Shown here: positions 3,159 to 40,834 of the stretch, piece after piece
Layout of the letters: every line of letters starts with the position of its first letter
Position numbering within the stretch: position 1 is the first letter of the stretch
DNA from: a virus
Virus record (IMG/VR): IMGVR_UViG_3300035698_012408
DNA length: 64,000 nt
Direction: 5' to 3' (one strand)
Translations under genes and position numbers: made by a program
The notes under the pieces: model-generated
What the model saw: the letters and a program-made list of their open reading frames with translations, nothing else
Databases searched by the model: none
What the model was told of the DNA's origin: nothing

Positions 3159-3175
3159 ACTGCTTTCTGCTTGGG

Positions 3176-4998: not shown

Positions 4999-5422
4999 TG
5001 TCTCTGCTTTCTGCTGCTGCTTCGACCACGGTGTCCCCACCGGGCCGTTTCGGAAATATGAAGATGTATTTCCAATCCTTGGAAGATCCGGCGAGTCCAT
5101 CGCCGGTTGGATGCGGATCAAAGAAGATGTCTCCATTATACCCAATCACGGTGTGGTTGCAACCGCCACGGGGTGAAGGACCAGAAATAATATGCAAACC
5201 CCAGAGTTCACTGAAGCCATCCAGCTTACCGGGCTTGGCGTCCACCCGTGCCAGATCACGCTCCTCCAGCCACTGATAGAAGTTGATCGGCCACTCGGGC
5301 TCCGATCGCCAGTGTGGGAGCTGGACGATCGGTATCTGGAGCAACGTAGCCACGCATGCCCGCAGACAGTCACCAAACGTGTCACTGGACGAGAGTACCT
5401 GCTGCTGGTAAACGCGTAACAT
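4979..5422 (-). CDS. putative papain-fold (C39-like) cysteine peptidase
   Basis: FGDCLRACVATLL (candidate Cys nucleophile), GGCNHTVIGYNGD (candidate His), IFFDPHP (candidate Asp). Pattern match only. Confidence 0.5.
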   Translation of the reverse strand: MLRVYQQQVLSSSDTFGDCLRACVATLLQIPIVQLPHWRSEPEWPINFYQWLEERDLARVDAKPGKLDGFSELWGLHIISGPSPRGGCNHTVIGYNGDIFFDPHPTGDGLAGSSKDWKYIFIFPKRPGGDTVVEAAAESRDNEHPTP

Positions 5423-6005
5423 CGAGAGCCCTCTGGTGTGCTGTCTGGGGATCGTAAGTCCAAACGTAGCTGGATGGATGCTTCCATCCGTACAACGTCA
5501 GGTCCAATGCCGCCTGCACGCTCCTGCGATTAGCGTCATGCCCCGCCAGCAGCCCCGTTGGGGACAGCAATGGCAACCACGCCCTGATGTCTGCTACTAC
5601 TTCATCGGTTGTGTGCCCTCCATCAATGAAGATGAAGTCAAATAGACCGAGAGGAGCCAGCAACCGTGCTGCCTCCTCACTTGATGTCGGTACGAACTCC
5701 ACGATGCCGGCATCCACCCACTGTGCTAGGTTCCGCTTGGCATGGCGGATGAAGTTGGTATCGCTCACTGCCTCCTTATGTGATGTCAACTGCTCCGTCG
5801 CTGATCCTCGGAAGTGATCCACGGCCCAGATATGCCCTCGGGCAAACTCTGCCATGCACGCGGTACTCTTCCCCTTCCACACTCCGATCTCCACGCAGTT
5901 CACATGCTGCGAGGCCTGCTCTGCTACGAACTGCATAGCTGCTGGGTCGAACCAGCCTTCGATACGTGCAGCCTTGTAAGTTGAGGGGACACGAATGTCA
6001 GCCAT
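5382..6005 (-). CDS. class I SAM-dependent methyltransferase (Methyltransf_24/CmcI-like)
   Basis: VEIGVWKGKSTACMAEF, FIFIDGGH, LLAGHD. The ATG at 6005 is preceded by AAGGTGGA; the track start at 6017 is a GTG. Confidence 0.7.
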   Translation of the reverse strand: MADIRVPSTYKAARIEGWFDPAAMQFVAEQASQHVNCVEIGVWKGKSTACMAEFARGHIWAVDHFRGSATEQLTSHKEAVSDTNFIRHAKRNLAQWVDAGIVEFVPTSSEEAARLLAPLGLFDFIFIDGGHTTDEVVADIRAWLPLLSPTGLLAGHDANRRSVQAALDLTLYGWKHPSSYVWTYDPQTAHQRALDVTRLPAAGTLVQ

Positions 6006-6366
6006 CTGCTGGTCCACCTTCGGAATAGTCAGTTGCCCAGTCGCACTTGTCCAGGTACTCGCAGATCTGTGCCTTCAGCTCCGTGAGTCGTGTCTTCCTG
6101 CGGTTGTCCTTCCCCAACGGTACCACAGTGATAGGCGCGTCATCGGCACCGAGTAAGCGCTTGGCCTGCGGTACCAACTCGGCGGGGTAATCAATAACGG
6201 CCACAACGTCGACCAAAGCAGATGCTGCCTTGATGGCTCGACGGTGGCCGATACCTAACGCACAGGCCTTGTGGCCCCGATCATTGAGAAGTTCTGCTAT
6301 TACTGCCGAGCGTCCTTCGCCCGATGGTCCAATACACAATATCCGCTGCGGCTGCTTTGACATCAT
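5998..6366 (-). CDS. hypothetical small alpha/beta protein with a P-loop-like GPSGEGRS
   Basis: ATGATG at 6366 is preceded by AAGGGAGA and follows the upstream stop at 6375. RILCIGPSGEGRSAV has Arg where the Walker A Lys would be. Confidence 0.55.
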   Translation of the reverse strand: MMSKQPQRILCIGPSGEGRSAVIAELLNDRGHKACALGIGHRRAIKAASALVDVVAVIDYPAELVPQAKRLLGADDAPITVVPLGKDNRRKTRLTELKAQICEYLDKCDWATDYSEGGPADG

Positions 6367-6374: not shown

Positions 6375-6857
6375 TTAGCGTAAATGCCGTGGGATGAAAT
6401 GTTCCCACACGATCTCGAACTCACCACCCTGCTTGTCCCACCAATAGGTATTATCGCAGCCGTTGTGGTTGCACTTCCCCTCCTTACCTTCGGTGTAGAG
6501 ATTCAATGGCCATCCGCACGCCGGGCACACTGGTCCGTCATGCTCGTCGCCATCATCATGTCGTATCGCTCCCGACATCGTGTCCTGCATCTTTCCGCCT
6601 GCTTCCGGCGACTGCTCTTCCAGTATGATTAGATCCGGTACCGGACACCCTTCAGGTCCGCATACCGGTGCAACAGGTGTTGCGGGCGTAACGCCCATGC
6701 CCCGCTGTGCCTCGATCGATATGTTATCGATCCGGTCATGCACTGCATCAAGCTCGAACTTCACGAACACGGTCATGAAGATGCCTGCGCAGATGACGAT
6801 AAATATGGTCAGCCAGAGAGCTGCCATGTGTTGCTGCTGTCTCGGGTTACTGGCCAT
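6375..6857 (-). CDS. membrane-anchored protein with C-terminal zinc ribbon
   Basis: The ATG at 6857 is preceded by GGAGGG. Transmembrane segment ALWLTIFIVICAGIFMTVFV. CPACGW...CNHNGC. Confidence 0.6.
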   Translation of the reverse strand: MASNPRQQQHMAALWLTIFIVICAGIFMTVFVKFELDAVHDRIDNISIEAQRGMGVTPATPVAPVCGPEGCPVPDLIILEEQSPEAGGKMQDTMSGAIRHDDGDEHDGPVCPACGWPLNLYTEGKEGKCNHNGCDNTYWWDKQGGEFEIVWEHFIPRHLR

Positions 6858-6928
6858 TGGTGAATCCCTCCACTTGTTTGGCTTCCCATTTAGACTTGTG
6901 TAATCCGATAAACCACCGGTCGCTAACA

Positions 6929-10109: not shown

Positions 10110-11153
10110 ATGTCAACACACGCAGATCAGCCATTCGCTGATGCTCCCAGTCCCGAAGCGTACGCTATCGCCCCGCCAGAGCCTTTCGCTCAACTCATGC
10201 CAGGACTGATAGTCATGGAGGGGGACATCCGCCTCGGGCTCGACCACCTGGGTGATGGTTGGAATGAAGTCACCCAAGGGTACGTCGGTATCACCGTGCC
10301 TGATGCTCAGGTGGCTTATGCTCGCTTGATCATGCCCGAGAACTTCTCTCGACTCGTCAATGGGACCTTCGTTCATCCCCGTGATCAGCTCTGGCGGAGT
10401 GGTGAGCCTCGCTGGGTGCCGGTACCGGCTGAGTGGATCGCTCGTGGCATGACCGTTGATGGTATCCGGGAGGAACTCGCGGAAGAAGCCCAGCTCTACA
10501 TCTGCCGTCCTGACTTCGATGCTCCTGATCACCGAGTGTTGCCCATTCCGCCCCATCACCGAGCCCTTGCAGCTGCCGAACCGATCCGATATGGCGATAA
10601 AGCCATCCACGCAGGGCTCGATGACTGGCAAACTGTCGCTGTTGGGCTCCGTGGGCAGGAATGTGGTGAACCGTGCGAACCGAACAAGTTCGTCCGCTAC
10701 TGCCGGCCTATCCACCCCCAAGCCCAGAACTGGTATGTTGACCTTCGACCCGATCGAGGTGACGATACCGGCCCCGGATCAGCCGTCACACCCTTCGCAA
10801 CGCTCGAAGGTGGCCAAAATGCGATCGAAAAGGCCTCCCAAGACGCCAATATCACCGTCTATGGCGTGATTTGGGAGGTTCGAGGCACCCCGCTGGTCGC
10901 TTATGACCTCCCTGAGCCTCAAAAACAGGGTTATCAGGCCCCAATACTCGAATGTGACCCTGCTGAAGAGGCCGATCGAGCTCGGCTGAGCGCCCTGGCA
11001 CCCAAAATACCGATCGAACCGACCGGTGCGGCCGAAAAGACCGCTGCTACCCCTAAATTGCAAAAAGAACACATCAAGGCGATGATCCAGAGCCTCGAAC
11101 AAGCACTTCTGGTAGCTCATACCATGCTAGCGGAGATTGAGAGCGGAGAATGA
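10110..11153 (+). CDS. hypothetical protein
   Basis: 347-aa ORF with an AAGGAAGAG leader. One of only two plus-strand genes. Confidence 0.7.
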   Translation: MSTHADQPFADAPSPEAYAIAPPEPFAQLMPGLIVMEGDIRLGLDHLGDGWNEVTQGYVGITVPDAQVAYARLIMPENFSRLVNGTFVHPRDQLWRSGEPRWVPVPAEWIARGMTVDGIREELAEEAQLYICRPDFDAPDHRVLPIPPHHRALAAAEPIRYGDKAIHAGLDDWQTVAVGLRGQECGEPCEPNKFVRYCRPIHPQAQNWYVDLRPDRGDDTGPGSAVTPFATLEGGQNAIEKASQDANITVYGVIWEVRGTPLVAYDLPEPQKQGYQAPILECDPAEEADRARLSALAPKIPIEPTGAAEKTAATPKLQKEHIKAMIQSLEQALLVAHTMLAEIESGE

Positions 11154-11563
11154 CCATGCGTGACCGAATTATCGACCTAGATGGTGCCGATGACAAGCCT
11201 ACGCGGGCTGAGCGGAGCTACACCGTCTATTGCGAGTGCGAAAACTGCGGAGAGCTCGAATATATCGAGATCGAACGCGGTATTCTCATCACCAACGCCG
11301 TCTGCCCCTTCTGTGACTGCATGTCGCTCATCCGAGCGGCTGAACCGGGCAGTCTCGAAGAGTTCGAGGACCTCGAAGACGACCCATTGGACACCGGGGT
11401 GGACTTTCAGACGATTGTGGACTCCCTGGAGCTCCAAAAAGCGAGGGAATCACAAGAAGGCATGCCTCACATGCCGATCAGCCCGTTCGATCGCTCGGTA
11501 GCTGAGTTGGCACGGCAGGTACGTGAGGAACAACGACACGGGAGCAGGCAAGACGCTGGCTGA
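11150..11563 (+). CDS. zinc-ribbon protein with acidic C-terminal half
   Basis: ATGA overlap with the upstream gene. CECENCG...CPFCDC. Confidence 0.7.
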   Translation: MTMRDRIIDLDGADDKPTRAERSYTVYCECENCGELEYIEIERGILITNAVCPFCDCMSLIRAAEPGSLEEFEDLEDDPLDTGVDFQTIVDSLELQKARESQEGMPHMPISPFDRSVAELARQVREEQRHGSRQDAG

Positions 11564-11573
11564 GACGCCAAGC

Positions 11574-11587
11574 GGTACTTAGAAACC
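11574..11587 (+). repeat. GGTACTTAGAAACC motif copy (c)
   Basis: Merges into the terminator stem. The 18-nt gcggtacttagaaaccac is identical to the copy at 51862. Confidence 0.8.
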
Positions 11588-11627
11588 ACCTGGATCGGAC
11601 TTTCCGGCCCAGGTGGTTCTTTTTTTA
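11584..11627 (+). terminator. rho-independent terminator at a convergent gene junction
   Basis: Stem aaccacctgg (11584-11593) pairs with ccaggtggtt (11609-11618), followed by cttttttt. Confidence 0.75.
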
Positions 11628-11631
11628 GCTA

Positions 11632-13176
11632 TTAGTCAGCTGGGTCGCGAGGAGGTCCGTCCGATTCCCAACCACTCTCTCGCGGAGTCCTGGGCACGTC
11701 CATGTAAGCACGCGGATCGAGCGTTTCACCAGCTGTCGGGCGGCCTATCGCGGGATGTGAGACGACTTCTCCCCAATTCTCCCTACGATTGGACCTACAC
11801 ACGCCGTGGACATCCACATAAGTATCAGGCTCTTGTACAGGTCTTACCGCCGCCCCGCCTACCTCGAACGTGTCAGATCGCACATACTCTGATCCGGCAT
11901 CGGCCATGAGCAGCGACGGGTCGTCAGGGTCCCGGGGTCGCCCGGATCGCGTTGGCCGGTTGCCGTTCTGATCCACGGGATGTTCTTCATCCCGATCGGC
12001 AGCCGCCAACACCGACGGATCGATCCCGCCGGGTCGTTGTGTGACCAGCAACGCCGGATCGACGCCATTTGCTGCCGCATCACGTGCTTCCAGCTGTTGA
12101 GCACGACGCCTCCGGTGCCCCTCCAGTCGATTGTCTTCTGGGGTGCCGCAACCAGGAGGTGGTGTCTCGCCAATGGCCATGCCCGGAGATGGCGTGGGCC
12201 GCATCCTGACCTGCTCGTCGTGCATCCGCTGCATTTCCTCTTCGAGATCCAAGCCGAGTGACGCCGCCCGGCTGCTAGAAGACATGCCAGGAACGTCCAT
12301 CATTAGTGCAGAAGCGCTGTTGGCCGCGGAGAGTGAGGAGGACGAAGAGGCGGAAGAAGACGATGATTCGGCGGTCGGAGGATTAAGCGAAATCATGGCC
12401 AACGCCGCACTTATGTTGAAATTATAGGCATGTGCAACACTCGCGACAGCATCCGTGCCCATTGCCCGGTAGACCGCCCGGGCCGTCCGCACCAGCTGCC
12501 GAGCTTCGCCGCCGTCAACGTGGCCGCGGTCCTCAATGCTATTTGCGAGCCGCTGCGCCATGTCGTACGCCGCGATGGCGGCCGCTAGGTCTTCGCAGAG
12601 TGAGTCAGCCCACTCATCCTCTTCATTGGGTACCGGCGCCGGGGCGTCTGGATCATGCAGGGAGACCCCTGACGAGCGTATATCGAAGATGCCCTGTTGA
12701 TGCAACGCCTCGTCGGCCTCAACAACCGCAGGTATGGTGGGAGCGGTGCTAGGTTGTGTTCCAGGCTCGTCGAGGTCAATCACACGCTCCTGCCGACCCG
12801 TGTCAGCCACCACAGCGTGAGATAGCCGTATCTCGTCCATCCACAGATGATACCCCTCGAATTCCAGCTCGGTCAAGAGGAGACTAGGGTATGTGTCAGG
12901 CCGCTGCCCGTGAAGCCGTGTGAATATCCCAGAAGCTGCTATGTAGGCCAGTCTCGCCGAGTCCTCTTCGTAGAAGTCACAAAGCGTGACGGTTTGTGCC
13001 CTCCTTAACATTATCGGGTCCGTGGGCTGCGGACCTGATGGTTGCGATCGCGCCACCAGCGACCACGGCGGCGTCCTTGCATCGTCCGTCTGCTTCACGT
13101 GCTCGACCAACTGGATGCTCGTCAGATTGTCATAACTGACAGTGCTGTCCCGCCTGACCACAATGAATGGGTTCAT
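11632..13176 (-). CDS. hypothetical protein (acidic, with a poly-Ser run)
   Basis: 514-aa ORF with a GGAG leader. Contains SSSSASSSSS. No catalytic motif seen. Confidence 0.7.
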   Translation of the reverse strand: MNPFIVVRRDSTVSYDNLTSIQLVEHVKQTDDARTPPWSLVARSQPSGPQPTDPIMLRRAQTVTLCDFYEEDSARLAYIAASGIFTRLHGQRPDTYPSLLLTELEFEGYHLWMDEIRLSHAVVADTGRQERVIDLDEPGTQPSTAPTIPAVVEADEALHQQGIFDIRSSGVSLHDPDAPAPVPNEEDEWADSLCEDLAAAIAAYDMAQRLANSIEDRGHVDGGEARQLVRTARAVYRAMGTDAVASVAHAYNFNISAALAMISLNPPTAESSSSSASSSSSLSAANSASALMMDVPGMSSSSRAASLGLDLEEEMQRMHDEQVRMRPTPSPGMAIGETPPPGCGTPEDNRLEGHRRRRAQQLEARDAAANGVDPALLVTQRPGGIDPSVLAAADRDEEHPVDQNGNRPTRSGRPRDPDDPSLLMADAGSEYVRSDTFEVGGAAVRPVQEPDTYVDVHGVCRSNRRENWGEVVSHPAIGRPTAGETLDPRAYMDVPRTPRESGWESDGPPRDPAD

Positions 13177-13177
13177 G

Positions 13178-13828
13178 TTAGAACTCCGTCTTGATAACTC
13201 GCCTGAACCTCTTGTTCTTGTTGCAGGCCGCTCGAACGTCCAGCAGCACCTGCTTCAGAGGCTGATTTCCATCCACGACCGGATAACCTAAGTTCTCAGC
13301 AGCCTCCAGGTAGGCCTCGCGAAGCCGCGTCCGCCACTCAAGGTCTCGAACCTCGAATCGATCGAGCGGCATCCCGCCACGCCCATCTGTATTACGCTTG
13401 CGGTGGATTCCCGTCTCCGGGTCGACGTCCAACACGATGTAGACGTCGGGATTGACGCCAACGAGCCTGTCGTGCAGCCACCGAATGAGGCTTTTGTCCG
13501 CGTACTCAAGCATACCCTGGTACACATAAGTTGACAAGACCCAGCGGTCTGCGACCACGTCACCACCGTCATGCAGATGCGCGATGATCCCTGGGGTAAG
13601 CGAGTGACGTGCTGTCGTGTAGAGCAGAACCTGCTCTGTCGGTGTAAGATCAAGGTCTTGATCTAAGATAATCGGCCGTAGCCGTTTTCCGAGCTCTGAT
13701 GTCCCGGGGTCATGTACCAGTTCGACACGAGGCCGCTGGTAAGCTGTCAGACGACGCTTGAGCGCCTCTGCCACAGTTGTTTTGCCGCATCCGTCGATTC
13801 CTTCCACACAAATAAACAAACCACGCAT
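13178..13828 (-). CDS. tmk: thymidylate kinase
   Basis: FICVEGIDGCGKTT P-loop, a DRW..S.YVYQG-type block, typical length. GGAGGA leader. Confidence 0.9.
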   Translation of the reverse strand: MRGLFICVEGIDGCGKTTVAEALKRRLTAYQRPRVELVHDPGTSELGKRLRPIILDQDLDLTPTEQVLLYTTARHSLTPGIIAHLHDGGDVVADRWVLSTYVYQGMLEYADKSLIRWLHDRLVGVNPDVYIVLDVDPETGIHRKRNTDGRGGMPLDRFEVRDLEWRTRLREAYLEAAENLGYPVVDGNQPLKQVLLDVRAACNKNKRFRRVIKTEF

Positions 13829-13865
13829 TGGATCGATCCTCCATTTCCAATCCCCCCTTGACTAA

Positions 13866-13915
13866 TCAAACAAAAAGCAATCGGCTGACACCAATCCCTT
13901 GGCAGTCAGCCGATT
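13866..13915 (-). terminator. rho-independent terminator
   Basis: Perfect 11-bp stem aatcggctgac (13879-13889) / gtcagccgatt (13905-13915), then GCTTTTTGTTTG on the minus strand. Two further small hairpins lie upstream (13939-13955, an 8-bp palindrome, and about 13959-13974). Confidence 0.65.
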
Positions 13916-13989
13916 ACGCCACTCATTGGCAAAGAGCCGGTAGCATCATGCTACCTTCGTCAGTCCCTTGACGGAGTCCTCCCAGCCAG

Positions 13990-14448
13990 TCAGGCCGGCA
14001 GTGTCGATGGAGGCTGCGTGGCAGGGTCATCCCCAGCACACTCAGGCGCCTCCGATTTATCACTCTCCTCCACAGCACACGGCTGCGAAGCGTCGCAATG
14101 ATCACATTCATCATCGCACGTGTCGAGTGGCGGGTCTTCCGTACCTTCTTCCGCCTTGTCGCAGCTGCACGCCGTCTCGGGCAGCGAGTTAATCGCATCA
14201 GCTGCGGCGGGTGTCGCAACCTCGGCCGGTGGTGCTGGGGAGCTCAGAGGGGGTGCCGGGTTTTCCGCCATCGCTTCTACCCGGAGAATTGCCCGGTGCT
14301 CCTGCCCGTCCGCGTCCCGCACTGTCAGTTTGATGTGATCACCACAACCTGAGGCCGCTACGATATGCGAGCCATCAGGTTGACTGACCCCGGCGATGAT
14401 ACCCTCCGCAATTGATAAATTGGTGAGGGCGATAAACAATCCTTGCAT
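13990..14448 (-). CDS. hypothetical protein with a Cys/Asp-rich acidic C-terminus
   Basis: ATG at 14448 in a TAATG junction with the upstream stop. CSCD...CDDECDHCD. Confidence 0.6.
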   Translation of the reverse strand: MQGLFIALTNLSIAEGIIAGVSQPDGSHIVAASGCGDHIKLTVRDADGQEHRAILRVEAMAENPAPPLSSPAPPAEVATPAAADAINSLPETACSCDKAEEGTEDPPLDTCDDECDHCDASQPCAVEESDKSEAPECAGDDPATQPPSTLPA

Positions 14449-14945
14449 TAACCTACTCCTTGTGTACAAATAACCTTGGCCACGTCGTGAAAATAGATGA
14501 GCGCCTTGGCACCGTCACTGAGCGTGAGGTACACTCCCTGCTCTTCATGGGGCTGGCCGGGGCCTTGATAGATGCCGTCCCAATGATTGTTGGCACGATC
14601 CGTCGTGCGGTAACGTAATCCCACTACCATGTTAGATATTGAGATAATCCGCTGGTCATGCGGAGGTGAGTCGTCGCCGCGAACTCGGAAAGAAATGAGT
14701 TCGCCGGCGTCGAACATCGCTTCGATGAGCGGTTCGCCCTTGTCTAAAAGGCCGTTTACCAAACCGAGCGAACCAACCGCAAAGTCTACTGATGGGTTGT
14801 CTACGATGGGTACCACGATAATGGTCTCGTGCTGAGCCAGCTGCTCATTGCACCCATGCCTCGCCTCGATAAGCCGCTGCATCGCTTGCCAGTCACGACG
14901 CACTGCGTCATTTAGTATCTCCACAACTTTCGATGCTTTGACCAT
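14448..14945 (-). CDS. hypothetical protein
   Basis: 165-aa ORF in a coupled operon. Confidence 0.65.
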   Translation of the reverse strand: MVKASKVVEILNDAVRRDWQAMQRLIEARHGCNEQLAQHETIIVVPIVDNPSVDFAVGSLGLVNGLLDKGEPLIEAMFDAGELISFRVRGDDSPPHDQRIISISNMVVGLRYRTTDRANNHWDGIYQGPGQPHEEQGVYLTLSDGAKALIYFHDVAKVICTQGVG

Positions 14946-15276
14946 CGGGCGTATCCCCCTGCTTGCTGGCGTGTGTATCCCTGGCTGCTTCAGCCCTGTG
15001 ATGAACGGCTGCTCTTCGTGACGCCGCTTCCGTTGTGGCCTGGGTGTAGAGTTCCTCAGTCCCTAAGGTCTGAAGATGTTCGGCGATGGCCTTCGATTGC
15101 TTGTTTAAGATAGCAATCGTCGCCGGTCCTTCTTCGGAGACAGAAATGATGTTGTCTTTGTCGACCTCTTGAGGCTCGATCATAAGACTTGCTACGGTAC
15201 CATCCGAGTACATGACACGTGCCAGAAGACTGACCGTGGCCACTTTAGGTTTGGTATTTACTGCTGATTCAGCCAT
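14908..15276 (-). CDS. hypothetical protein
   Basis: 122-aa ORF with a GGAGAGGA leader. 38-nt overlap with the next gene. Confidence 0.55.
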   Translation of the reverse strand: MAESAVNTKPKVATVSLLARVMYSDGTVASLMIEPQEVDKDNIISVSEEGPATIAILNKQSKAIAEHLQTLGTEELYTQATTEAASRRAAVHHRAEAARDTHASKQGDTPDGQSIESCGDTK

Positions 15277-15321
15277 TCATTCCTCTCCGTTTGATACTTA
15301 GATATTACATGCAGCAGGTGT

Positions 15322-16443
15322 CTACGTCAATAGTTCTTCGGCAGCTTTCTGTAATTCCTCCGCTAAAACTGCTCGAACCGTCGTAAAATCCCTGACGCCG
15401 GTGCCATAGGTCGTCATACCGGCGATGAAACGATCGAGGACAAACGCCACGTCACCGCCGTAGCTATTCATCAGCTCCCGTGTGGCCAGCGTGAACTCAT
15501 ATTGGGCGCTATGCTGCGATTGCTCCACTGAACTGGCAGCTGCCCGCTGTAATGCTCTTGCCGACTCTTCGTTGATACCGTGCAACGCTGTCAGTGCGGC
15601 CATGCCATTATCCGAGGTGGCATCCACAGGGCGTCCCAACCGTGGAACCTCCGGTGACACCTCCGGTGACAGCCCCAACGCCTCCAGCAGCGATCGGGAT
15701 GATGCAGCTTGACCCGCCTGGGCGTCATTTATCAGACTCCTAACCTCTGCGGCTGCTTCTGCCTGTCGCTCGGTGTCTGGTGACGCCTGTAAAGCGCCAA
15801 CCCAATTGTCCGCAAAGTTGAGGGCTGCGTCTGACCCGGGGATGTTTGAACGCCGCAAGAGCTCAAACACCCGACCGTGGGAGTTGGGTGGTGCGAAGTT
15901 GCGAGCCTCTCTCGCCCTTGCCGCCTGCCGCACAGTCTTCGCTGCCGCATTTAGAGATGGTTCATGGCCACGCAGCACCTGAACGATAACATCCTGCGCC
16001 ACCTCGTGATCCTGCAACCCTGCCACCAACTCCGCTGCCTCTTCATACCTCGCTTCACGGCGTTCCGTCTCCAACCGGTGTGTTACCACCGCACGTTCCG
16101 CGGCCTCCCGCTCACGCACTATGTTATTGGCTACACGCTCCTCTTCTCGCTGTCTCGCCAAGGTCACGTACGCTTCCACCGTCTCCACAACGTGCAGCAT
16201 CGTGGGCGGGTTGCCGCGTCTCGGCATTATATGCCCTTGAAGACGAAACTCTTCAATATTGGCAATGGCGTCAGCTAGTCGCGCACCAATATATTCGTTG
16301 GCCATGTGGTCATCGTTAATATCGGCCCACGGCAGCTCCGCCAAAAATGCCTCGGCCTGAGCCTCCGACGTTACGTCTGAAAGCTCAACCCGAAACATGA
16401 TTTGACGCTCTGCGCGGTCATTATCATCACTGTTGTGGCTCAT
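15322..16443 (-). CDS. hypothetical protein (alpha-helical, Ala/Glu-rich)
   Basis: 373-aa ORF. Confidence 0.7.
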   Translation of the reverse strand: MSHNSDDNDRAERQIMFRVELSDVTSEAQAEAFLAELPWADINDDHMANEYIGARLADAIANIEEFRLQGHIMPRRGNPPTMLHVVETVEAYVTLARQREEERVANNIVREREAAERAVVTHRLETERREARYEEAAELVAGLQDHEVAQDVIVQVLRGHEPSLNAAAKTVRQAARAREARNFAPPNSHGRVFELLRRSNIPGSDAALNFADNWVGALQASPDTERQAEAAAEVRSLINDAQAGQAASSRSLLEALGLSPEVSPEVPRLGRPVDATSDNGMAALTALHGINEESARALQRAAASSVEQSQHSAQYEFTLATRELMNSYGGDVAFVLDRFIAGMTTYGTGVRDFTTVRAVLAEELQKAAEELLT

Positions 16444-16807: not shown

Positions 16808-17153
16808 CAGAACCTCCTTCAATTACAATGGGTCGCAAAACTTTATGGTACTCGAAACCGTCCAGCTCCTGCTGGATAACGGCATGCACCACATCAATGT
16901 CTGCGTTCGTGCTGCGATCCTTCACGTTCAAGCGAAAGACGCCGGGTGAGTCACAGACCACGGAAACCTCTTCCACGTATTTCCCTACATTATGCGTCAT
17001 GTCCACGCTACGCACTGCACGAATGATGGCCCGTGCCATCTCCGTAATTGCCCTGGTAGCTACGACGTCACGCCCTGCTGCAATATTATTCATCGCATGC
17101 GCTGTGTCTTCGTCAGATGGCCCATCTACTTCTGGATCATACTCTTCGCTCAT
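16797..17153 (-). CDS. hypothetical protein
   Basis: 118-aa ORF with a 4-nt overlap with the upstream gene. Confidence 0.65.
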   Translation of the reverse strand: MSEEYDPEVDGPSDEDTAHAMNNIAAGRDVVATRAITEMARAIIRAVRSVDMTHNVGKYVEEVSVVCDSPGVFRLNVKDRSTNADIDVVHAVIQQELDGFEYHKVLRPIVIEGGSDEY

Positions 17154-18202
17154 TTTTCCACCTCAATATCATCTAACTGAATAACGCGATGCTCACGCTC
17201 CACCGGCAATTTGCTGTCTCGTATACTTATCTCGCCATGTGGCTCGGGATCGAAGAACAGCTCCGCCCCGTTATGCACTACCAACCATCTAATCAGCATG
17301 GTGCCAGGGTCCATGCTCTGCACCAACACGAGCTGATCAGAAATCGGGTAACGCATGCGAACGCTGTATCGTTTATCCGTCACACTGGCAGCTTGTGCGA
17401 AGTTCATCGTGAAGTCGAACTCGCCCAGCGACACTGGCTCATCGTGCAGCCGCATGACAGCAGTGTGTAACGCCTGTAGCACGCATTGGAGCCCAAAATC
17501 GTGTGTCTGCATATTCTGCTGCTGCGCGAACAACACCGTTGACGTAAATGCCGCCTTGGTACTGCTTGGCAACCGCATCCCGTGCGTCTCATGCCCTCTC
17601 GCGAAGTTGGCGGTATTGCCTGACCAATGTCTTGGGATATTACTACGCAACTGGGACGGGTCCATGCCGGTCATGCCGGTAGGTCCGTACCCGGAAGGTC
17701 CGTACCCGGAAGCACCCATAGGGCGATCGTAACCTGAACCACCAGCAGCCGCACCCGGGGAATCAGTACCAGACGAACTATCTCCATGCTCAAATGACCA
17801 GTCCTCAGCATCGGAGTCAAGGTGGTGTGGTCTAGCCTCTTCCGCAGCAGGCACACCGACAGGCCCAGGCTCGCCTACCTCGCCGGTCGGACAGCCTTCA
17901 GGTCCCGAGGGCTCACCCGCTGCCCTGTCGCGTAACGCGTCCACCGTTGCACTCACCGCGTCGTTGATTTCCGTCATTTGTGACTCCACACCTGTCATCC
18001 TATCCGCTAACTCATCCGACCTCTGATGCCGCTGCCGCTGCTCCTCTCGTAAATTATCTACCTCTCGCGATCGCGTCTCTATATCTGCCAAATCTGCCAA
18101 CGCCGCATGACTACGCCGTCGCTGTATGCGTATCCGCAACCAGTGATACACGATGAATGCACCGATTACCCATAGACACAGTAAAAATGACGTCAAACTC
18201 AC
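17150..18202 (-). CDS. membrane-anchored coiled-coil protein
   Basis: GTG start with a GGGAGAA leader. Transmembrane segment FLLCLWVIGAFIVYHWL, then a charged helix, a Gly/Tyr-rich linker and a C-terminal globular part. Confidence 0.7.
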   Translation of the reverse strand: MSLTSFLLCLWVIGAFIVYHWLRIRIQRRRSHAALADLADIETRSREVDNLREEQRQRHQRSDELADRMTGVESQMTEINDAVSATVDALRDRAAGEPSGPEGCPTGEVGEPGPVGVPAAEEARPHHLDSDAEDWSFEHGDSSSGTDSPGAAAGGSGYDRPMGASGYGPSGYGPTGMTGMDPSQLRSNIPRHWSGNTANFARGHETHGMRLPSSTKAAFTSTVLFAQQQNMQTHDFGLQCVLQALHTAVMRLHDEPVSLGEFDFTMNFAQAASVTDKRYSVRMRYPISDQLVLVQSMDPGTMLIRWLVVHNGAELFFDPEPHGEISIRDSKLPVEREHRVIQLDDIEVEK

Positions 18203-18220: not shown

Positions 18221-18258
18221 GAAAAAAGGCGGCCGGGCGCTAAGCCTCAGCCGCCTTT
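18221..18258 (-). terminator. rho-independent terminator after the tubulin-like gene
   Basis: Stem aaggcggc (18226-18233) / gccgcctt (18250-18257), followed on the minus strand by TTTTTTC. Confidence 0.7.
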
Positions 18259-18291: not shown

Positions 18292-19455
18292 TTATACACC
18301 AAGGAAGTCTGCGACGCTATCCCGGGTCTCCCCGGCTTTCACCGCAAGCTCCTGAAGACGTTCCAACGGCATCGGCAAGTTCCCCACCATTGCGAGAATC
18401 TTGATGCCGTCGCCCCCGCTGGCCGGGTAGACGCCTGGGAACACTGCGGAATCGGCCGGAGTAAGGATACGATTCATCATCTCGGTGCCGTGGTCCAGCA
18501 CGCCAACCGTGATAGGCTCCGGCCCGGACCAAGCTGCGCCACTCACGACGTAGATGAGCCCGGCGACGTTGCCCTGGGTGAGATCGATCGTAGCCAACAC
18601 ATTCCGGCGAAGCTGATCACGGATGGGCGTACTGACGTCGCTCGGCTCCGCCCACTTCGTGATATTGCAAGCTGCAAAGGCCACAATTCCACTGTCCATG
18701 ATCTTGCTGAAATCGGCCGGATCGAATGTCGTACCACCCACATCCTCGCTCTCCGTGCCGGCGAGCCGGTTGAAGGTATGGAGGATCTGAGCCGTACTCT
18801 GGTTAGATGCCGGTTTCTCTTGTGGTACTGGCACCTTGGCACCATAGAGCGTTTTGAACTTCTCGTTGTCGATGAAGATCACAGGGCTCACCTTGAGCTT
18901 GTTCAGCACCTTCGCCGAGTGGAGAATGTTCTTTGCGCTACGCTGGCCTTCGGAGTCCTTTGGCATGGCCATGATGACACCAACACGCGGAGGTCGCTTC
19001 TTCTCCTGCATGTAGCGCTTGGCTACCTGGACCACCTTAGCGAACGCCCCGGCACCCGTACCGCCCGCCCCAGAGAGGCAGACAAACACGTAATCCGGGT
19101 CCTCGCCCCAGCAGCGCTGGAAGAGATCATAGAGATCCTCGTCCTTATCCGCTACCAGTCGAGCCGCCGTGTGCGGATCTTTACCTGCACCCCGCGCCTG
19201 CCCCACATCGAGCTTGGCGGTGTCCGGGAACGTCTTCAGCTCGGCCAAGTCGGCAATCGCCGTGTTGACCGCACAGACTCGGGTGTACCCGATTTCCTGA
19301 AACGTCTTGGCTATCCGCCCGCCAGCTTGTCCGACACCCACAAACGCGAATTTGTAAGCTACCGGATGATCAAACTTGTCGGCGATAGTCATCCCCGTAG
19401 GGCTCTCAGGAACCTCTGGTAGGTCCCCAATGTTGAGATGGATGTCATCACTCAT
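18292..19455 (-). CDS. tubulin/FtsZ-superfamily GTPase
   Basis: FVGVGQAGGRIA (T1), LSGAGGTGAGA (T4 signature), IFIDNEKF, TTFDPADFSKIM (T7-like loop), C-terminal DSVADFLGV. Confidence 0.85.
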   Translation of the reverse strand: MSDDIHLNIGDLPEVPESPTGMTIADKFDHPVAYKFAFVGVGQAGGRIAKTFQEIGYTRVCAVNTAIADLAELKTFPDTAKLDVGQARGAGKDPHTAARLVADKDEDLYDLFQRCWGEDPDYVFVCLSGAGGTGAGAFAKVVQVAKRYMQEKKRPPRVGVIMAMPKDSEGQRSAKNILHSAKVLNKLKVSPVIFIDNEKFKTLYGAKVPVPQEKPASNQSTAQILHTFNRLAGTESEDVGGTTFDPADFSKIMDSGIVAFAACNITKWAEPSDVSTPIRDQLRRNVLATIDLTQGNVAGLIYVVSGAAWSGPEPITVGVLDHGTEMMNRILTPADSAVFPGVYPASGGDGIKILAMVGNLPMPLERLQELAVKAGETRDSVADFLGV

Positions 19456-19475: not shown

Positions 19476-20018
19476 TTACTCCGGGACCGATGCGATCTGG
19501 GTAAGGTCAAACCCGTCGTCCTCGGCACCAGCATTTTCATCCTGAACGTCGTCGGCTGCCATCTTGTTGAGCTCTACGACGACCTCATTGTACAGAGGCA
19601 GATTCGCCGATTGCAGCTCGACCAGAGCTGTATTGTAATCATCCGCACCCATTGATGCAAGGCTTTCCGCCGTGACGCGAGCCTGCGAAGGCCTCTCCGA
19701 GATGGTGGAATCGCCGAGTTGTAGCTCGGCAGTGCCGGCCTGCGCCGGCGCGGGGTCCTGCGTGGCAGGTCTCGCGACGGTTGCCGCAACCTCGGCCGTC
19801 ACGACCGGATCGATGACAATCGCCGGCTCCGGCAACGGCTCCGGTGTCGGTGACGGTGGAGCAACCACAGCCGCCGCAACAGGCTCCTTGGGAAAATGAT
19901 TCGCGACAGGCAACGCCCTGGGTTTCGCACCCGCGACGCCGACTGGCGTGAAATTCTTCTGTGAAGACGGTGGCGGCTCTCTGTCCCGCAGTCGCTTACG
20001 GTACTTGATTTGACTCAT
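19476..20018 (-). CDS. hypothetical Pro/Ala-rich protein with an acidic C-terminus
   Basis: 180-aa ORF immediately upstream of the tubulin-like gene. Confidence 0.6.
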   Translation of the reverse strand: MSQIKYRKRLRDREPPPSSQKNFTPVGVAGAKPRALPVANHFPKEPVAAAVVAPPSPTPEPLPEPAIVIDPVVTAEVAATVARPATQDPAPAQAGTAELQLGDSTISERPSQARVTAESLASMGADDYNTALVELQSANLPLYNEVVVELNKMAADDVQDENAGAEDDGFDLTQIASVPE

Positions 20019-20032: not shown

Positions 20033-21085
20033 TTAAGCAAATATCCGTCGAATATTAGACCCAAAGGTCTCACGACGGAGGTGAAGGCCCTTCGACACGC
20101 TTTGCTGCAACGAATACAGCCGCTCCGTGTCTAAGGCGTCATTCCGAAATACATCATCCATGAGAGCATAATCAGGAGCAGCACAAGGCAACCCTATATT
20201 ATTCTTCTCTTCGGACGTGTCAACCAGAATCCCGTGAACACCGTTCACAAACATCTCGGACATCGGCTGACAGTTAAATGTCACAACAGGTGTCCCCATT
20301 GTCACCGATAACAGCCCTACCATACAAGTGCTTTCCCAGTGTGTTGGCCAGAAAGTTACATCATGCTGACGGAAGAGCAGCGGCCGGGACGCTGGATGCA
20401 CCCCCTTATATAATGAAAGTCGACCCGGGAATTGCTTCTTCAATTGCTTCAGTAAGCGCTTCCCAGGCGACGCAATTGTTGACGAATTATAAACCACGCT
20501 GAGCGAGGCTTTCGGACATCCCTCTAAGGCTCGTCCGGCCACTTCCAGGGCTGTCAATTCTACACGCCTCGCCACGCCGTCGTATATCGGCATGAGTATC
20601 TTTGGTGCGGTCGGCTGGTAGTCCTGCGGCTTCTTGCAGATTGGCAAACCCACGTCCCAAGGAACCACAACCACGTTATCCAGTTTCCATTGATAGCCGA
20701 GAAACTGTGCCGCCGCCATCGTTGGCGCGATCACCATGTCAGCTGCCTGTAAGGCTGCCCGGTCAGCTACCCGCGACTCCATGCTCAGCTCATGCCACAG
20801 CACAAAAATACATGTGCGACGCTGCTGTTTCTTCGCATACTTGACTTGCTGCGGGTGCGGGATACTCGTCCACAAGACGATGTCGCACTGTTGCAGCCAC
20901 TTCGTAAATTTAAGGTCACGGCTTCGCCGAACCTGTGCATCCCACTTGTTCGACACGCGACGCGGTGTGTCAGTCATTGTTAATATCGACACGTCATGCC
21001 CATGTGCGACAGCCGAATCCGCAATGCGTAATCCTGCATAAGTCGCTTCATGAAAACAGTAACGGGTACAGATGCCTAGATTCAC
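20033..21085 (-). CDS. GT-B fold glycosyltransferase (GT4-like)
   Basis: N-terminal LGICTRY...AHGHDVSILT. C-terminal PTHWESTCMVGLLSVTMGTPVVTF...VNGVHGILV resembles the E-x7-E block. Confidence 0.65.
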   Translation of the reverse strand: MNLGICTRYCFHEATYAGLRIADSAVAHGHDVSILTMTDTPRRVSNKWDAQVRRSRDLKFTKWLQQCDIVLWTSIPHPQQVKYAKKQQRRTCIFVLWHELSMESRVADRAALQAADMVIAPTMAAAQFLGYQWKLDNVVVVPWDVGLPICKKPQDYQPTAPKILMPIYDGVARRVELTALEVAGRALEGCPKASLSVVYNSSTIASPGKRLLKQLKKQFPGRLSLYKGVHPASRPLLFRQHDVTFWPTHWESTCMVGLLSVTMGTPVVTFNCQPMSEMFVNGVHGILVDTSEEKNNIGLPCAAPDYALMDDVFRNDALDTERLYSLQQSVSKGLHLRRETFGSNIRRIFA

Positions 21086-21088: not shown

Positions 21089-21925
21089 TCAACCCTTGAA
21101 AGCCTTCACACTATCTGCCATAGCGTACGGGGGATTGACATAAAAACCAATGCGACCCTTGGAGCCCCGATGCCACGTGCGTCGAGGACGTACCAATGAA
21201 ACCACACCAAAATGCTGACACACAAACGGCACCAATAACCCTGCCCAGAGTCCGTTCCGCGATGCTGCTTTCTTCAATTGATCATCAAACTTCTGTTTTG
21301 TATTATGCTTGCGCCTGAAGAAATTATCAAGCGTAGTAAACCCTTCCCGTGTTACGTACAAACACTGCGCGGTGATCCCGCCCTCGCGCACACGCTGCTT
21401 ATCGCAGTTCTTTATTTTCTTGTTCAGATGCAGTCCCGAGAGGATTGCCAGCGGTTTAGCGAATAATAACTCATCCGCCGCCACCTGCGTCAAGCGTTCG
21501 TACCAATCCTCTTTGAATATCACATCATCTTGTAGCAAGATGACCCCAGGAGCATCAGGATATTTGTCGAACATGCGACAGACAGCTTGGCAGGACGCAT
21601 TGACCACGCCAGCCGGCTTCTTCCCTAGCCGCACGACACCGACACGTCCACGCAATCCTACAGGTGGCTTCGCACTTTTGTTGATTACGTCAAGCCCCAA
21701 CTTCTTCCACATGGCATGTTGTGGCCACTTGTGTTCCGACCCTGTCCCTCGGGCGGTAGTGTAGTACGTTCGGGCCTCCGTGGTGTCGCTGGCATCATCA
21801 AACACAGTCAGCGGCACAGCTTCAGGAAGCCGTGTCGCCGACAATGATCGTAAGGTCACGTCAAGGTAATGAATACGGTTACGTGATATGATGCCAATCG
21901 GCACCAGTTTACCAACTTCTGCCAA
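21089..21925 (-). CDS. GT-A fold glycosyltransferase (GT2-like)
   Basis: TTG start with an AGGAG leader. VPIGIISRNRIHYLDVTLRSL, LTVFDDASDTTEA, LLQDDVIF (DxD-like). Confidence 0.6.
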   Translation of the reverse strand: MAEVGKLVPIGIISRNRIHYLDVTLRSLSATRLPEAVPLTVFDDASDTTEARTYYTTARGTGSEHKWPQHAMWKKLGLDVINKSAKPPVGLRGRVGVVRLGKKPAGVVNASCQAVCRMFDKYPDAPGVILLQDDVIFKEDWYERLTQVAADELLFAKPLAILSGLHLNKKIKNCDKQRVREGGITAQCLYVTREGFTTLDNFFRRKHNTKQKFDDQLKKAASRNGLWAGLLVPFVCQHFGVVSLVRPRRTWHRGSKGRIGFYVNPPYAMADSVKAFKG

Positions 21926-24075: not shown

Positions 24076-24089
24076 GGTACTTAGGAACC
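24076..24089 (+). repeat. GGTACTTAGGAACC motif copy (d)
   Basis: Spans the stop codon of 24081..24257, 23 nt upstream of the ATG at 24053. Confidence 0.8.
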
Positions 24090-24257
24090 AGATGGGTCGA
24101 CGCGTCCCGCCACTTGATCCGCCAAGCGATGTGTCACGTCGTCATCCAGATTCTGGGTCTGTGAAGCTGCGGTAGCCTGCTTTTCTCCTGGTCGTTGGAC
24201 ATTCCGATCTTCGACATCGGGTGTCTGACCCGGCTCTACAACGGCTCGCTTTTCCAT
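24081..24257 (-). CDS. small hypothetical protein (58 aa)
   Basis: ORF 24081..24323. The ATG at 24257 is preceded by AAGGAGGG and follows the upstream stop at 24278. Confidence 0.55.
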   Translation of the reverse strand: MEKRAVVEPGQTPDVEDRNVQRPGEKQATAASQTQNLDDDVTHRLADQVAGRVDPSGS

Positions 24258-24277: not shown

Positions 24278-25405
24278 TTACTCTGGCGGCAGCGCACCGG
24301 TTTCCGTGATCATCAGAGTACAATGCTCCAAATGACCAACGGCGTACTGCACACCCGTTGTTTGTACCCGATAAACCTCCTCCGTACCAGTGACATTCAT
24401 GGCCAACGGTGGAGGATTATCACTTTCGGCCACCGGCGGGAACCACCGAGGCCCCTGGTATCGATTGTCGTAAACGAGAATGATAAATCCAGGCTGCACG
24501 ATCACGTCATGGTAATACGCCCTGTTCGTGCCATACCCTTCCATCTCGAAGACGACCTCGATCGTCGGCTGCGCCGGCCCTGCCTGAGCGCGAGAACCAG
24601 CTGGGGCTTCGTCACGCAGATCGATTGCCCTGAGCTCACGAGTGGGTTCGGGTGCTGGCGGCTGCTGGTTAAAGGCTGCCAGAGGAGCTACACGGCGCTG
24701 CGGGGCTGCGTGGGCCGCGGTTTGAAGCGTTGGAGCAGGAATCTCCTGCTGTACCGCAGGTTGCGGTGCAAACTGTTGTACAGCCACAGGTTGCTGTGCC
24801 TGCGGCGGCATCGGTTGAACGGGTTGTGCAACATACGGCTGCACGGGCTGCTGTGATTGATGGTGCATAACCGGTTGCTGTGCAACAGGTTGAGCCATCT
24901 CAAGCGGCTGCTCTTGCAACGCCGGGCCTGCCCCCGCGACAGTTGCGGCGATACCGTGCATGGTTGCCGCCCCTCGCAGTCGCAACGTCTCGATGCTCGT
25001 CGGTTCCGGTGTGACGTCGCGGGCCATAGCGATCCCAGCGGCCACAGTCTGCTGATTGATGTCGCCAAGCCGGACGCGTGAGCTCTGCCCGGCAATATGC
25101 GGATCAATCACGACCTCGATGTCGCTGGTTACGTGTGGGGACGTGCCCTGAGGGATGCCTCCCATCGTGGAACGTGGGATAATGGTACCATTCAACCCTG
25201 CGGGTCCGGGTCGCATTACGCCTGTCACAGGCGTGCCAGCAGCCGTACGCTCACCCGCGGCTGGGCGGTACCCATATTGCGTCTCAGGCGTAACAGGTCG
25301 GCCGGTGTCACGCTGGGGTAGAGGCTGTGCATCTCCATAGCCTCCGGTCTCTCCGTCGAAAAACGGGTCCAGCTGCACAATCCTATTGCGTTCTGTCATT
25401 ATCAT
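24278..25405 (-). CDS. hypothetical protein with a central Q/P-rich tract
   Basis: 375-aa ORF, first gene after a terminator-like hairpin. Confidence 0.7.
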   Translation of the reverse strand: MIMTERNRIVQLDPFFDGETGGYGDAQPLPQRDTGRPVTPETQYGYRPAAGERTAAGTPVTGVMRPGPAGLNGTIIPRSTMGGIPQGTSPHVTSDIEVVIDPHIAGQSSRVRLGDINQQTVAAGIAMARDVTPEPTSIETLRLRGAATMHGIAATVAGAGPALQEQPLEMAQPVAQQPVMHHQSQQPVQPYVAQPVQPMPPQAQQPVAVQQFAPQPAVQQEIPAPTLQTAAHAAPQRRVAPLAAFNQQPPAPEPTRELRAIDLRDEAPAGSRAQAGPAQPTIEVVFEMEGYGTNRAYYHDVIVQPGFIILVYDNRYQGPRWFPPVAESDNPPPLAMNVTGTEEVYRVQTTGVQYAVGHLEHCTLMITETGALPPE

Positions 25406-25499: not shown

Positions 25500-25544
25500 A
25501 AAAAAAAGTCTACGACCGACCCGGGGTCACCCCCGAGCCGATCG
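25500..25544 (-). terminator. possible rho-independent terminator
   Basis: 14-bp GC-rich stem (25513-25526 / 25531-25544, including 3 G-U pairs). A T8 run on the minus strand is separated from the stem by 5 nt. Confidence 0.4.
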
Positions 25545-25552
25545 CACACGTA

Positions 25553-40571: not shown

Positions 40572-40717
40572 CAGCGTGTCTTCAACCCCAGGGGTCCAGC
40601 GTGCAGTGAGACGGCGTTATCCTTCTTGGGTTTTACCACCGCCGTTTTCTTCTTTGCAGCCTTCTTCTTGGCCGTCTTCTTGACCGCCTTCTTCTTTGCT
40701 GCCTTCTTTTTGGCCAT
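40571..40717 (-). CDS. 48-aa lysine-rich (histone H1-tail-like) protein, not in the ORF track
   Basis: My own translation: MAKKKAAKKKAVKKTAKKKAAKKKTAVVKPKKDNAVSLHAGPLGLKTR. The ATG at 40717 is preceded by GGAGGAGG with a 6-nt spacer. The stop forms TGATG with the next gene's ATG at 40571. Confidence 0.55.
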   Translation of the reverse strand: MAKKKAAKKKAVKKTAKKKAAKKKTAVVKPKKDNAVSLHAGPLGLKTR

Positions 40718-40820: not shown

Positions 40821-40834
40821 TACGTCCCTGCCAT

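Follow-up and report, generated by a model that had tools for sequence, protein, structure and literature searches.

By combining profile searches, structure prediction and the comparison of gene neighbourhoods, we show computationally that the window analysed here, a stretch of 64,000 nucleotides from the viral record IMGVR_UViG_3300035698_012408, encodes an intact GTPase of the tubulin/FtsZ fold, a 387-residue protein (the window tubulin) in which the nucleotide pocket, the T7 loop and both domains are predicted to be present. This predicted equipment is that of a cytomotive filament that polymerises head to tail, and we are highly confident that the protein is a phage tubulin of the polymerising kind and belongs to a distinct lineage. 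Its gene closes a head-module operon that includes the portal gene, an association that recurs among its relatives, and we moderately favour the interpretation that this third lineage, TubZ-like in fold, supplies a late phage cytoskeleton that organises virion production.

Motifs, family profiles and a structural model agree on the identity of the protein. The gene starts with ATG, 12 nt downstream of a Shine-Dalgarno-like GGGAG, and 20 nt separate it from the stop codon of the preceding gene. A reading of this DNA made from its letters and open reading frames alone (hereafter the sequence-only reading) had described a full tubulin-fold motif set, and each motif that it quoted lies where it had been placed: T1, FVGVGQAGGRIA, at residues 38-49; the T4 signature LSGAGGTGAGA at residues 127-137; the DNE block IFIDNEKF at residues 193-200; and the T7 loop, TTFDPADFSKIM, at residues 242-253, with DSVADFLGV forming the C-terminus. 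The residues concerned are conserved in a family alignment of 42 sequences, with identity down to 32%, in which G40/G42/G45 (T1), N64/T65, G89 (T3), G131-G134/G136 (T4), D196/N197 and the acidic D245 of T7 are invariant, and A90, G91 and K92 of T3 and the second acidic T7 residue, D248, are at least 90% conserved, the loops T1, T3, T4, T6 and T7 all being represented among these residues. Within a protofilament, the T7 loop of one subunit complements the catalytic site of the next, and its conservation here is what would be expected of a self-activating polymer, not of a degenerate fold.

The assignment of the protein to the tubulin/FtsZ GTPases, first made from these motifs, also passes the profile check, with a score of 44.4 bits to Pfam PF00091 (Tubulin) against a gathering cutoff of 33, and the same family is matched by all 42 members of the alignment. 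A phmmer search of PDB sequences with the window tubulin placed RepX/TubZ of pXO1-type plasmids (4e-11) ahead of CetZ (3e-9 to 6e-7) and FtsZ (~1e-5). The AlphaFold2 (AF2) model built with the family alignment (predicted local distance difference test, pLDDT, 89.7; predicted template-modelling score, pTM, 0.88) is a confident two-domain tubulin fold that contains both the GTPase and the T7 domains, with its elements in canonical order: S1-S6 and H1-H6, the core helix H7 (210-233), T7, H8 and an activation domain of S7-S10, after which two C-terminal helices follow. We also count toward the tubulin identity the inteins that interrupt the T4 signature of four members of ~800-830 aa (P0148, P0172, P0197 and P0247), since inteins typically sit in essential active-site motifs; in these proteins the match to the family hidden Markov model (HMM) is divided near profile position 132, the N-splice boundary is GAGGG/C in all four, and a C-splice boundary, VHN/SGSG or HN/TGSG, is seen in P0148 and P0247 only. 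The tubulin gene wholly contains an antisense open reading frame (ORF) of 310 aa at 18490-19422(+), of which similar antisense counterparts form clusters in the compared loci; it is most likely a by-product of GC-rich codon usage and no gene.

Profile scores and fold ranks point to the same nearest solved relatives, which appear to be TubZ/RepX, then CetZ, then FtsZ. Against PDB sequences, the family HMM scores RepX at 113 bits, CetZ 3zid at 95.5, M. jannaschii FtsZ at 89, CetZ2 4b45 at 87.7, c-st TubZ at 69 and TubZ-Bt at 59, and its best 60 PDB profile matches include no PhuZ, eukaryotic tubulin or Btub chain. Among references taken from annotated records, a RepX-like protein reaches 125 bits, pBMB171 TubZ 95, a haloarchaeal tubulin/FtsZ protein 81, c-st TubZ 68, E. 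coli FtsZ 47 and phiKZ PhuZ (gp39) 12.4. The retrieved members of the family (260 of 260) reach 234 bits or more, roughly double the best reference, and since the references do not exceed 125 bits, the family appears on these scores to lie outside any described TubZ clade. The Foldseek ranking of PDB structures is led by TubZ-Bt 2xka and RepX 4ei7 (E ~1e-21; query-based template-modelling score, TMq, 0.72-0.75), followed by CetZ (TMq 0.66-0.70) and then FtsZ (0.58-0.67); more than 1000 matches fall at E <= 0.001, of which the 50 best listed consist of TubZ, CetZ and FtsZ only. In BFVD an unannotated 'FtsZ' from an uncultured Caudovirales phage fits best (TMq 0.81, 24% identity), and the PhuZ models there reach a TM of 0.49-0.54, so that the earlier impression of a protein that is not PhuZ-like is upheld by both the profile score and the fold. 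Identity of the window tubulin to every reference is 18-22%, which is the range among the references themselves; judged in this way, the family would be as distant from TubZ, CetZ, FtsZ and PhuZ as these are from one another.

Domain libraries tell a similar story. The Pfam domain TubZ-like_C (PF22453) is found in 10 of the 42 family members, chiefly remote ones, and is undetected in the window tubulin at E <= 1; neither FtsZ_C nor Tubulin_C is found in any of the 42, and the NCBIfam FtsZ equivalog TIGR00065 gives the window tubulin 35.8 bits against a cutoff of 295.2. The protein is definitely not PhuZ, not FtsZ and not a eukaryote-type tubulin. Membership of the CetZ clade was considered and rejected on the grounds of the 81 bits of the haloarchaeal homolog, the low identity of cellular relatives (<=30%) and the viral context; a eukaryotic-type tubulin or BtubAB was rejected likewise, given the lack of Tubulin_C in the family and of such chains among its best 60 PDB profile matches. 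The sequence-only reading had called T1 tubulin/CetZ-style, and CetZ does carry GVGQAGGK; the motif also occurs in pBMB171 TubZ, however, and TubZ/RepX rank nearest, so that T1 is no argument against an affinity with TubZ. A neighbour-joining (NJ) tree of 89 sequences (368 columns, Kimura distances, 100 bootstraps) supports only the window clade, with 24 taxa at 94% and 12 taxa at 100%. Its deep nodes have less than 50% support, with the TubZ, RepX and PhuZ references on long branches amid remote family members, and we therefore took the placement from HMM scores and fold ranks and left the tree unused. The phylogeny suggested earlier thus recovers the clade of the window tubulin and places it firmly within neither the PhuZ nor the TubZ clade.

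The most informative context, which the sequence-only reading had missed, is the recurrent linkage of the tubulin to portal and terminase genes. We called ORFs in 93 loci that carry a tubulin gene and grouped the neighbouring genes into clusters; among the 62 non-redundant loci with at least 5 kb upstream, 36 have a same-strand portal gene no more than 5 kb upstream. In 15 of these the portal is of the window type, with 1.5-4.1 kb of genes between it and the tubulin, and in 21 it belongs to a different portal-like family of ~658 aa, which adjoins the start of the tubulin in 19 loci (gap -14 to +32 nt) and is itself preceded by the large terminase (TerL; PHROG terminase large subunit 4e-26, Pfam Terminase_6N). 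This ~658-aa family is probably a portal, as suggested by a collinear profile-profile alignment with the window portal family over 353 columns (E = 0.0035), a PHROG portal match (0.002), a best PDB match to SPβ prophage YonE (0.0085; 12 chains in the entry) and its position after TerL, each signal being weak alone. In the TerL-portal-tubulin loci the tubulin (~210 bits) is the sole protein in which phmmer still finds similarity to any protein of the window, so that the adjacency to a portal persists though the flanking genes lie beyond phmmer detection; by such comparison the tubulin appears far more conserved than its genomic background. A PHROG scan of the genes downstream of the tubulin in one locus of this subclade (L078) was uninformative and did not show capsid genes.

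In the window itself, the tubulin gene is the last of a seven-cistron head-module unit bracketed by two terminators (Table 1), of which the upstream one sets the limit of the operon. The clear terminator that had been noted after the tubulin is a hairpin followed by U6, which a simple terminator scan missed because of a bulge in the stem; the 106-nt stretch folds at -37.7 kcal/mol (z = -3.0). Gaps between the last five cistrons, from portal to tubulin, are 3-20 nt, and the order of the operon is kept in relatives (L001, L002, L007, L015) down to 46% tubulin identity. The earlier description of the tubulin as the last gene of a unit with a portal and two glycosyltransferases also holds, the portal being identified by tblastn, the GT-B enzyme by Pfam and the GT-A enzyme through its counterpart in L001. 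The portal family (A5) is present in 21 loci, and the window portal is 27-30% identical to its nearest deposited relatives, from Vibrio phages D69/D181/D148 and Salmonella phage Arash. Most window proteins have no PHROG or Pfam match, and these few library matches, together with the divergent portal, point to a deep, uncultured jumbo-phage lineage.

Searches of larger collections suggest a lineage that is large, uncultured and apparently restricted to phages. Among 1.84 billion representatives of 50%-identity clusters, the family HMM retrieves 394 clusters at E <= 1e-30 and 2669 at E <= 1e-10, and a search of 5.8 billion proteins with the window tubulin itself retrieves 113 clusters, down to 27% identity. 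In IMG/VR, relatives are encoded on at least 499 contigs, many of these uncultivated virus genomes being 190-235 kb long; contigs of 205-229 kb carry close relatives, and the source contig of the window (ENA ERZ27316532 k141_715151) measures 215,361 bp. In a word-indexed protein search the best match was at 83%, and the window tubulin's own gene was present yet not returned, which marks a sensitivity gap for null results. In 50,697 deposited phage genomes, tblastn found no match to the window tubulin, and in the same genomes the remote member P0107 matched only a fecal fragment of 6.7 kb and pBMB171 TubZ matched nothing. A pattern-limited scan of 185,579 species-representative genomes likewise brought up no core-family member: with a single protein it found nothing, and with the core-clade alignment it returned only archaeal, Chloroflexota and Planctomycetota proteins that share T1, at no more than 30% identity, and no clue to the host. 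The sole near full-length relative among the species genomes lies at 4975-5985 of a 52-kb contig (L098) in a Phycisphaeraceae metagenome-assembled genome, 28% identical over residues 36-370; this contig could be a mis-binned phage, or a weak hint at a host among the Planctomycetota.

Phage-encoded tubulins as such are a known kind of protein. A comparative genomics paper of 2021 counts 'two distinct representatives', PhuZ and TubZ, a jumbo-phage review of 2026 names only these two, further phage papers either treat PhuZ only or note an unrelated CetZ-like GTPase in phage G, and a 2023 phylogeny of FtsZ and tubulin did not sample phages. The present family is not described in the phage-tubulin literature that we searched; what is new is a distinct lineage and its wiring into a head module, without a recognisable TubR/tubC or chimallin partner.

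Comparison with the characterised systems brings out what is shared and what is not. TubZ and RepX, type III partition GTPases of the Bacillus plasmids pBtoxis and pXO1 and of Clostridium phage c-st, supply the top PDB matches by profile and fold and share with the window tubulin a T7 loop with two acidic residues and extra C-terminal helices, and TubZ also has a T1 of the GQAG type (GFGQAGTRMV in pBMB171 TubZ). Identity to these proteins is nevertheless 19-22%, the references score under half of the weakest family member, and the window protein has no match to TubZ-like_C. In place of the replication or partition locus of TubZ, the gene occupies the portal operon of a lytic-looking jumbo phage, where no winged-helix TubR partner and no tubC iterons were found, and the core-clade tail is hydrophobic whereas that of TubZ is basic. 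PhuZ (phiKZ gp39 and 201phi2-1 gp59, of the Chimalliviridae) is likewise a jumbo-phage gene product of the same superfamily fold, and the role proposed below, the positioning or trafficking of capsids or DNA in lytic infection, is modelled on it; in sequence, however, there is hardly any relation (12 bits), the acidic tail of the PhuZ type does not occur in the core clade, and the replication genes of the window phage are PolA-UDG, DnaB and UvsX. With CetZ, the second PDB class by profile and fold, the window tubulin shares the T1 core GVGQAGG[KR] and the DN[DE] block, but CetZ is a cellular archaeal protein that acts in cell shape, of ~21% identity, and the C-terminal domain of the window tubulin's relatives matches TubZ-like_C and shows no CetZ-specific feature. 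FtsZ has in common with it the fold, the T4 GGTG signature, a T7 loop resembling NxDxxD and a short conserved peptide after the C-terminal helix, while differing in T1 (GGGGxN against GQAGG), in possessing FtsZ_C and in the TIGR00065 model, which the window tubulin matches far below cutoff.

The tail and the flanking genes are the obvious places to look for partners. The core clade ends in a conserved D-x-[VI]-A-x-x-L-G-[VIL]-COOH, a probable docking peptide for cargo or an adaptor; remote subfamilies have basic or acidic tails. In FtsZ, TubZ and PhuZ the C-terminal tails specify partners, and the variation of the tail between subfamilies matches this behaviour. The ORFans on either side had been put forward as adaptors by the sequence-only reading, and both prove to be weak candidates. 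The upstream 180-aa protein does show the Pro-rich composition and acidic tail ascribed to it, but its positional conservation is limited to the closest relatives and its evolution is very rapid: a homolog search returned only the protein itself, so that orthology is argued from position and from the short motifs MSxIxHRKRL and DG[FY]DL, which flank a helical segment in the positional counterparts (L001, L002, L007, L018). Its single-sequence AF2 model is of low confidence (pLDDT 58.9), with residues 1-115 unstructured, helices at 125-164 and no winged helix; no DNA-binding match was found in Pfam, PHROG or NCBIfam, the weak model leaving cryptic DNA binding possible. We conjecture that it may be a fast-evolving adaptor. 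In another locus (L019) the small ORF upstream of the tubulin, at 6542-6916, is largely a (VDEP)n repeat, from which the upstream 'partner' position would seem to be unconstrained. On the downstream side, the translation of the 350-aa protein shows the hydrophobic N-terminal segment and the charged, heptad-like stretch behind the earlier call of a transmembrane segment plus coiled coil, but its gene lies past the terminator and hence in a separate transcription unit, outside the operon. It has no family match in Pfam, PHROG or NCBIfam, its counterpart is recognisable only in L002 (33% identity), and it is doubtful as a partner of the tubulin.

Neither a segregation system nor a phage nucleus is evident nearby. 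No direct-repeat arrays or iterons occur at 16-26 kb, where, chance pairs aside, the sole tandem repeat (17676-17712) is coding and lies inside ORF 17150-18202, and Tandem Repeats Finder likewise detected no centromere-like array over the whole window. The chimallin, gp50 and gp55 of phiKZ gave only chance-level tblastn matches to the window, and the earlier remark that no TubR-like or shell-like partner is visible still stands, none being detectable in these 64 kb.

We propose that the tubulin, co-transcribed with the portal as the final cistron of the head-module operon, would be expressed late and would form GTP-driven filaments that organise virion production in a large host cell. Such filaments could move procapsids, phage DNA in replication or packaging, or both, or hold them in place, and would in this way coordinate packaging in space, a function analogous to the capsid trafficking and DNA centring of PhuZ, here without a chimallin nucleus. 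The C-terminal tail would dock cargo or an adaptor, for which the upstream 180-aa protein is the most obvious candidate, as yet unproven. It is the position of the tubulin as last cistron beside the portal, together with the recurrent TerL-portal-tubulin order, that leads us to suggest a cytoskeleton for late virion production, and we would give this specific late role a chance close to even, or somewhat below it. A bolder version, in which the window tubulin founds a third bacteriophage tubulin lineage, widespread, so far uncultured and evolutionarily coupled to portal and terminase, and builds a nucleus-independent cytoskeleton that delivers or places procapsids and packaging sites in cells infected by jumbo phages, with lineage-specific tails and fast-evolving disordered adaptors to recognise cargo, we advance tentatively, as a possibility that the balance of probability does not favour.

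Several considerations weigh against this proposal. Common as the portal link is, it is not universal, and it may be a matter of inherited synteny and not of function: 26 of the 62 loci lack it, the other contexts including 13 loci with an unrelated 178-aa upstream protein and an overlapping 12 with GTP cyclohydrolase I further upstream. Near-duplicate phages among the IMG/VR loci may inflate the counts, and the portal label of the 658-aa neighbour is built on weak signals (E = 0.002-0.009). No promoter was identified, and the 'late' timing is an assumption drawn from the transcription shared with the portal; indeed polymerisation, timing of expression and cargo are all inferred. The negative results on a shell, a TubR-like adaptor and a lysogeny module cover 64 of ~215 kb, and chimallin is very divergent. 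Finally, the TubZ references fall, with low support, within the remote family in the NJ tree, and the lineage could count as part of a broad TubZ-like radiation.

Three other roles deserve consideration. In a type III (TubZRC) segregation system, the upstream protein would act as a TubR-like adaptor and the tubulin would partition an extrachromosomal phage genome, pseudolysogenic or in the form of a plasmid-prophage, as in c-st and Bacillus plasmids. The affinity to TubZ/RepX by sequence and fold fits this idea, as do TubZ-like_C in 10 of 42 family members, the basic TubZ-like tails of some remote members and a small gene directly upstream, in the place of tubR in pBMB171, a Lysinibacillus plasmid and c-st. 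That gene, however, encodes a Pro-rich protein of 180 aa, predicted to be disordered with a hairpin, instead of a winged helix of ~100 aa, and is not conserved across the family; no iterated repeats precede it, a glycosyltransferase gene lying 14 nt away, or occur elsewhere at 16-26 kb. The tubulin sits inside a portal operon, 19 loci lack any small upstream gene and couple the tubulin translationally to the portal itself, the core-clade tail (…LGV) is hydrophobic and not basic, and the window yielded no integrase, ParB or repressor, all of which leaves segregation with a small probability in our view.

A second idea turns on the tail, which resembles the conserved C-terminal peptide (CTP) of FtsZ: as a mimic directed at the host, the protein could bind FtsA, ZipA or SepF through …ADFLGV, or co-polymerise with FtsZ, and so block or re-purpose division or borrow a membrane anchor. 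Within the core clade both the hydrophobic tail and the C-terminal helix are conserved, and FtsZ structures are significant fold matches (TMq 0.62-0.67), yet the FtsZ equivalog score of 35.8 against 295 bits and the lack of FtsZ_C in all 42 members speak against mimicry, the tail is wholly different in remoter subfamilies that share the portal linkage, and the pLDDT of 81-92 for the last helix in the AF2 model hints that it may pack on the body and not act as a free peptide. We judge mimicry to be quite improbable. The linkage to the portal could instead mean that the tubulin belongs to the head. In that case it would form no cytoplasmic filament but work within the capsid or at its portal vertex, for example as a chaperone in assembly or as a protein that is ejected. 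The translational coupling to the portal in 19 loci and the adjoining head-module genes would agree with this, but the strict acidic residues of T7 and the longitudinal-interface architecture favour a GTPase activated by polymerisation, and 26 of the 62 loci lie away from head genes; the phage literature searched mentions no tubulin-fold virion protein, although no search was aimed at such proteins. We regard a head-bound role as very improbable.

Present understanding of phage cytoskeletons comes from two cases: PhuZ, by which the Chimalliviridae place their nucleus and move capsids, and TubZ, which partitions the prophage c-st. The family described here would stand beside them as a third phage tubulin lineage, one that is abundant (at least 499 IMG/VR contigs, hundreds of 50% clusters) and conserved above nearly all else in these phages. 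This abundance and conservation, together with the portal wiring, suggest that tubulin-organised virion assembly may be commoner among large phages than the nucleus-forming paradigm implies. The lineage leads to the hypothesis, open to direct test, that its cargo is linked to the portal or capsid, and it provides new filament architectures for structural work; its extra sampling among TubZ, CetZ and FtsZ could help to resolve the origin of the TubZ/CetZ branch, and it bears on the bacterial and phage cytoskeleton and on jumbo-phage cell biology.

Table 1. The tubulin operon of the window and its borders.
Feature	Position	Strand	Basis and remarks
350-aa protein, N-terminal hydrophobic segment and charged heptad-like region	17150..18202	-	translation; beyond terminator
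Intrinsic terminator closing the operon	18222..18255	-	GC-rich hairpin 18228-18255, then U6 18222-18227
Tubulin/FtsZ-superfamily GTPase, 387 aa, predicted TubZ-like fold	18292..19455	-	final operon cistron; Pfam, motifs, AF2, Foldseek, family HMM
180-aa lineage-specific protein directly upstream	19476..20018	-	basic N-terminus MSQIKYRKRL, Pro-rich middle, helical hairpin, acidic DGFDL tail
GT-B (group 1) glycosyltransferase	20033..21085	-	Pfam Glyco_trans_1_4 34.1 and Glycos_transf_1 31.0 bits (above cutoffs); PHROG glycosyltransferase; 17 loci
Probable GT-A (family 2-like) glycosyltransferase	21089..21925	-	no match of its own; positional counterpart in L001 has Pfam Glycos_transf_2
Portal, 705 aa	21936..24053	-	tblastn to Salmonella phage Arash portal 1e-56, Vibrio phages D69/D181/D148 ~2e-65
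58-aa small ORF	24081..24257	-	same position in L015, L001, L002, L007 (58, 59, 58, 53 aa)
375-aa first operon gene, function unassigned	24278..25405	-	cluster in 16 loci, conserved position before portal
Strong intrinsic terminator, end of preceding unit	25511..25546	-	16-bp stem with 10 GC pairs, then T-run

Some details of the operon complete this picture. The product of its first gene has no Pfam, PHROG or NCBIfam match, and the coordinates of the 58-aa ORF were taken over from L015. A sigma-70 promoter scan stayed at background (7 seen against 5.1 expected), and the 8-mers common to the operon leader and 2882-3175 yielded no aligned motif, with 0 matches to a spaced pattern. In Salmonella phage Arash (L012) the gene after the portal, at 10968-15545, encodes 1525 aa and is annotated as 'DNA-directed RNA polymerase subunit beta', with no glycosyltransferase or tubulin there, an arrangement which indicates that the region downstream of the portal varies among portal relatives.

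The rest of the window is that of a tailed jumbo phage of ~215 kb. It also encodes a DnaB-like helicase, a UvsX-like recombinase, SbcC, a primase, a topoisomerase and a thymidylate synthase, and the family A DNA polymerase of 1113 aa at 49448-52789(-) carries an N-terminal fusion of the uracil-DNA glycosylase (UDG) superfamily (Pfam UDG 54.7, DNA_pol_A 166.7 bits). No integrase, ParAB or repressor was found among the 40 window ORFs scanned, and no multisubunit RNA polymerase among the scanned window genes. Two DNA methyltransferases, at 5382-6017(-) and 31817-32695(-) (PHROG 6e-16 and 1e-58), presumably serve anti-restriction self-methylation. A dUTPase/dCTP-deaminase-like protein at 35032-36420(-) has an N-terminal SEC-C metal-binding motif, and a different SEC-C protein is encoded directly downstream of the tubulin in L001 (9116-9721).

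Tandem repeats mark several other parts of the window. Between the UvsX-like recombinase and the DNA polymerase lies a 596-aa ORF at 47275-49065(-) with no Pfam, PHROG or NCBIfam match, in which repeats of 30/42/72 nt at 47424-47591 encode a repetitive peptide. A 903-aa ORF at 7348-10059(-) contains 48- and 66-nt repeats at 7964-8350 and 8861-8945, and only its N-terminal ~100 aa match PHROGs, several of them, of unknown function. The sole non-coding repeat array of the window, distant from the tubulin, is an imperfect 12/15/27-nt tandem repeat at 40647-40712, TTCTTCTTTGCGCC-like and of ~4.7 copies, in the apparently intergenic gap 40572-40834.

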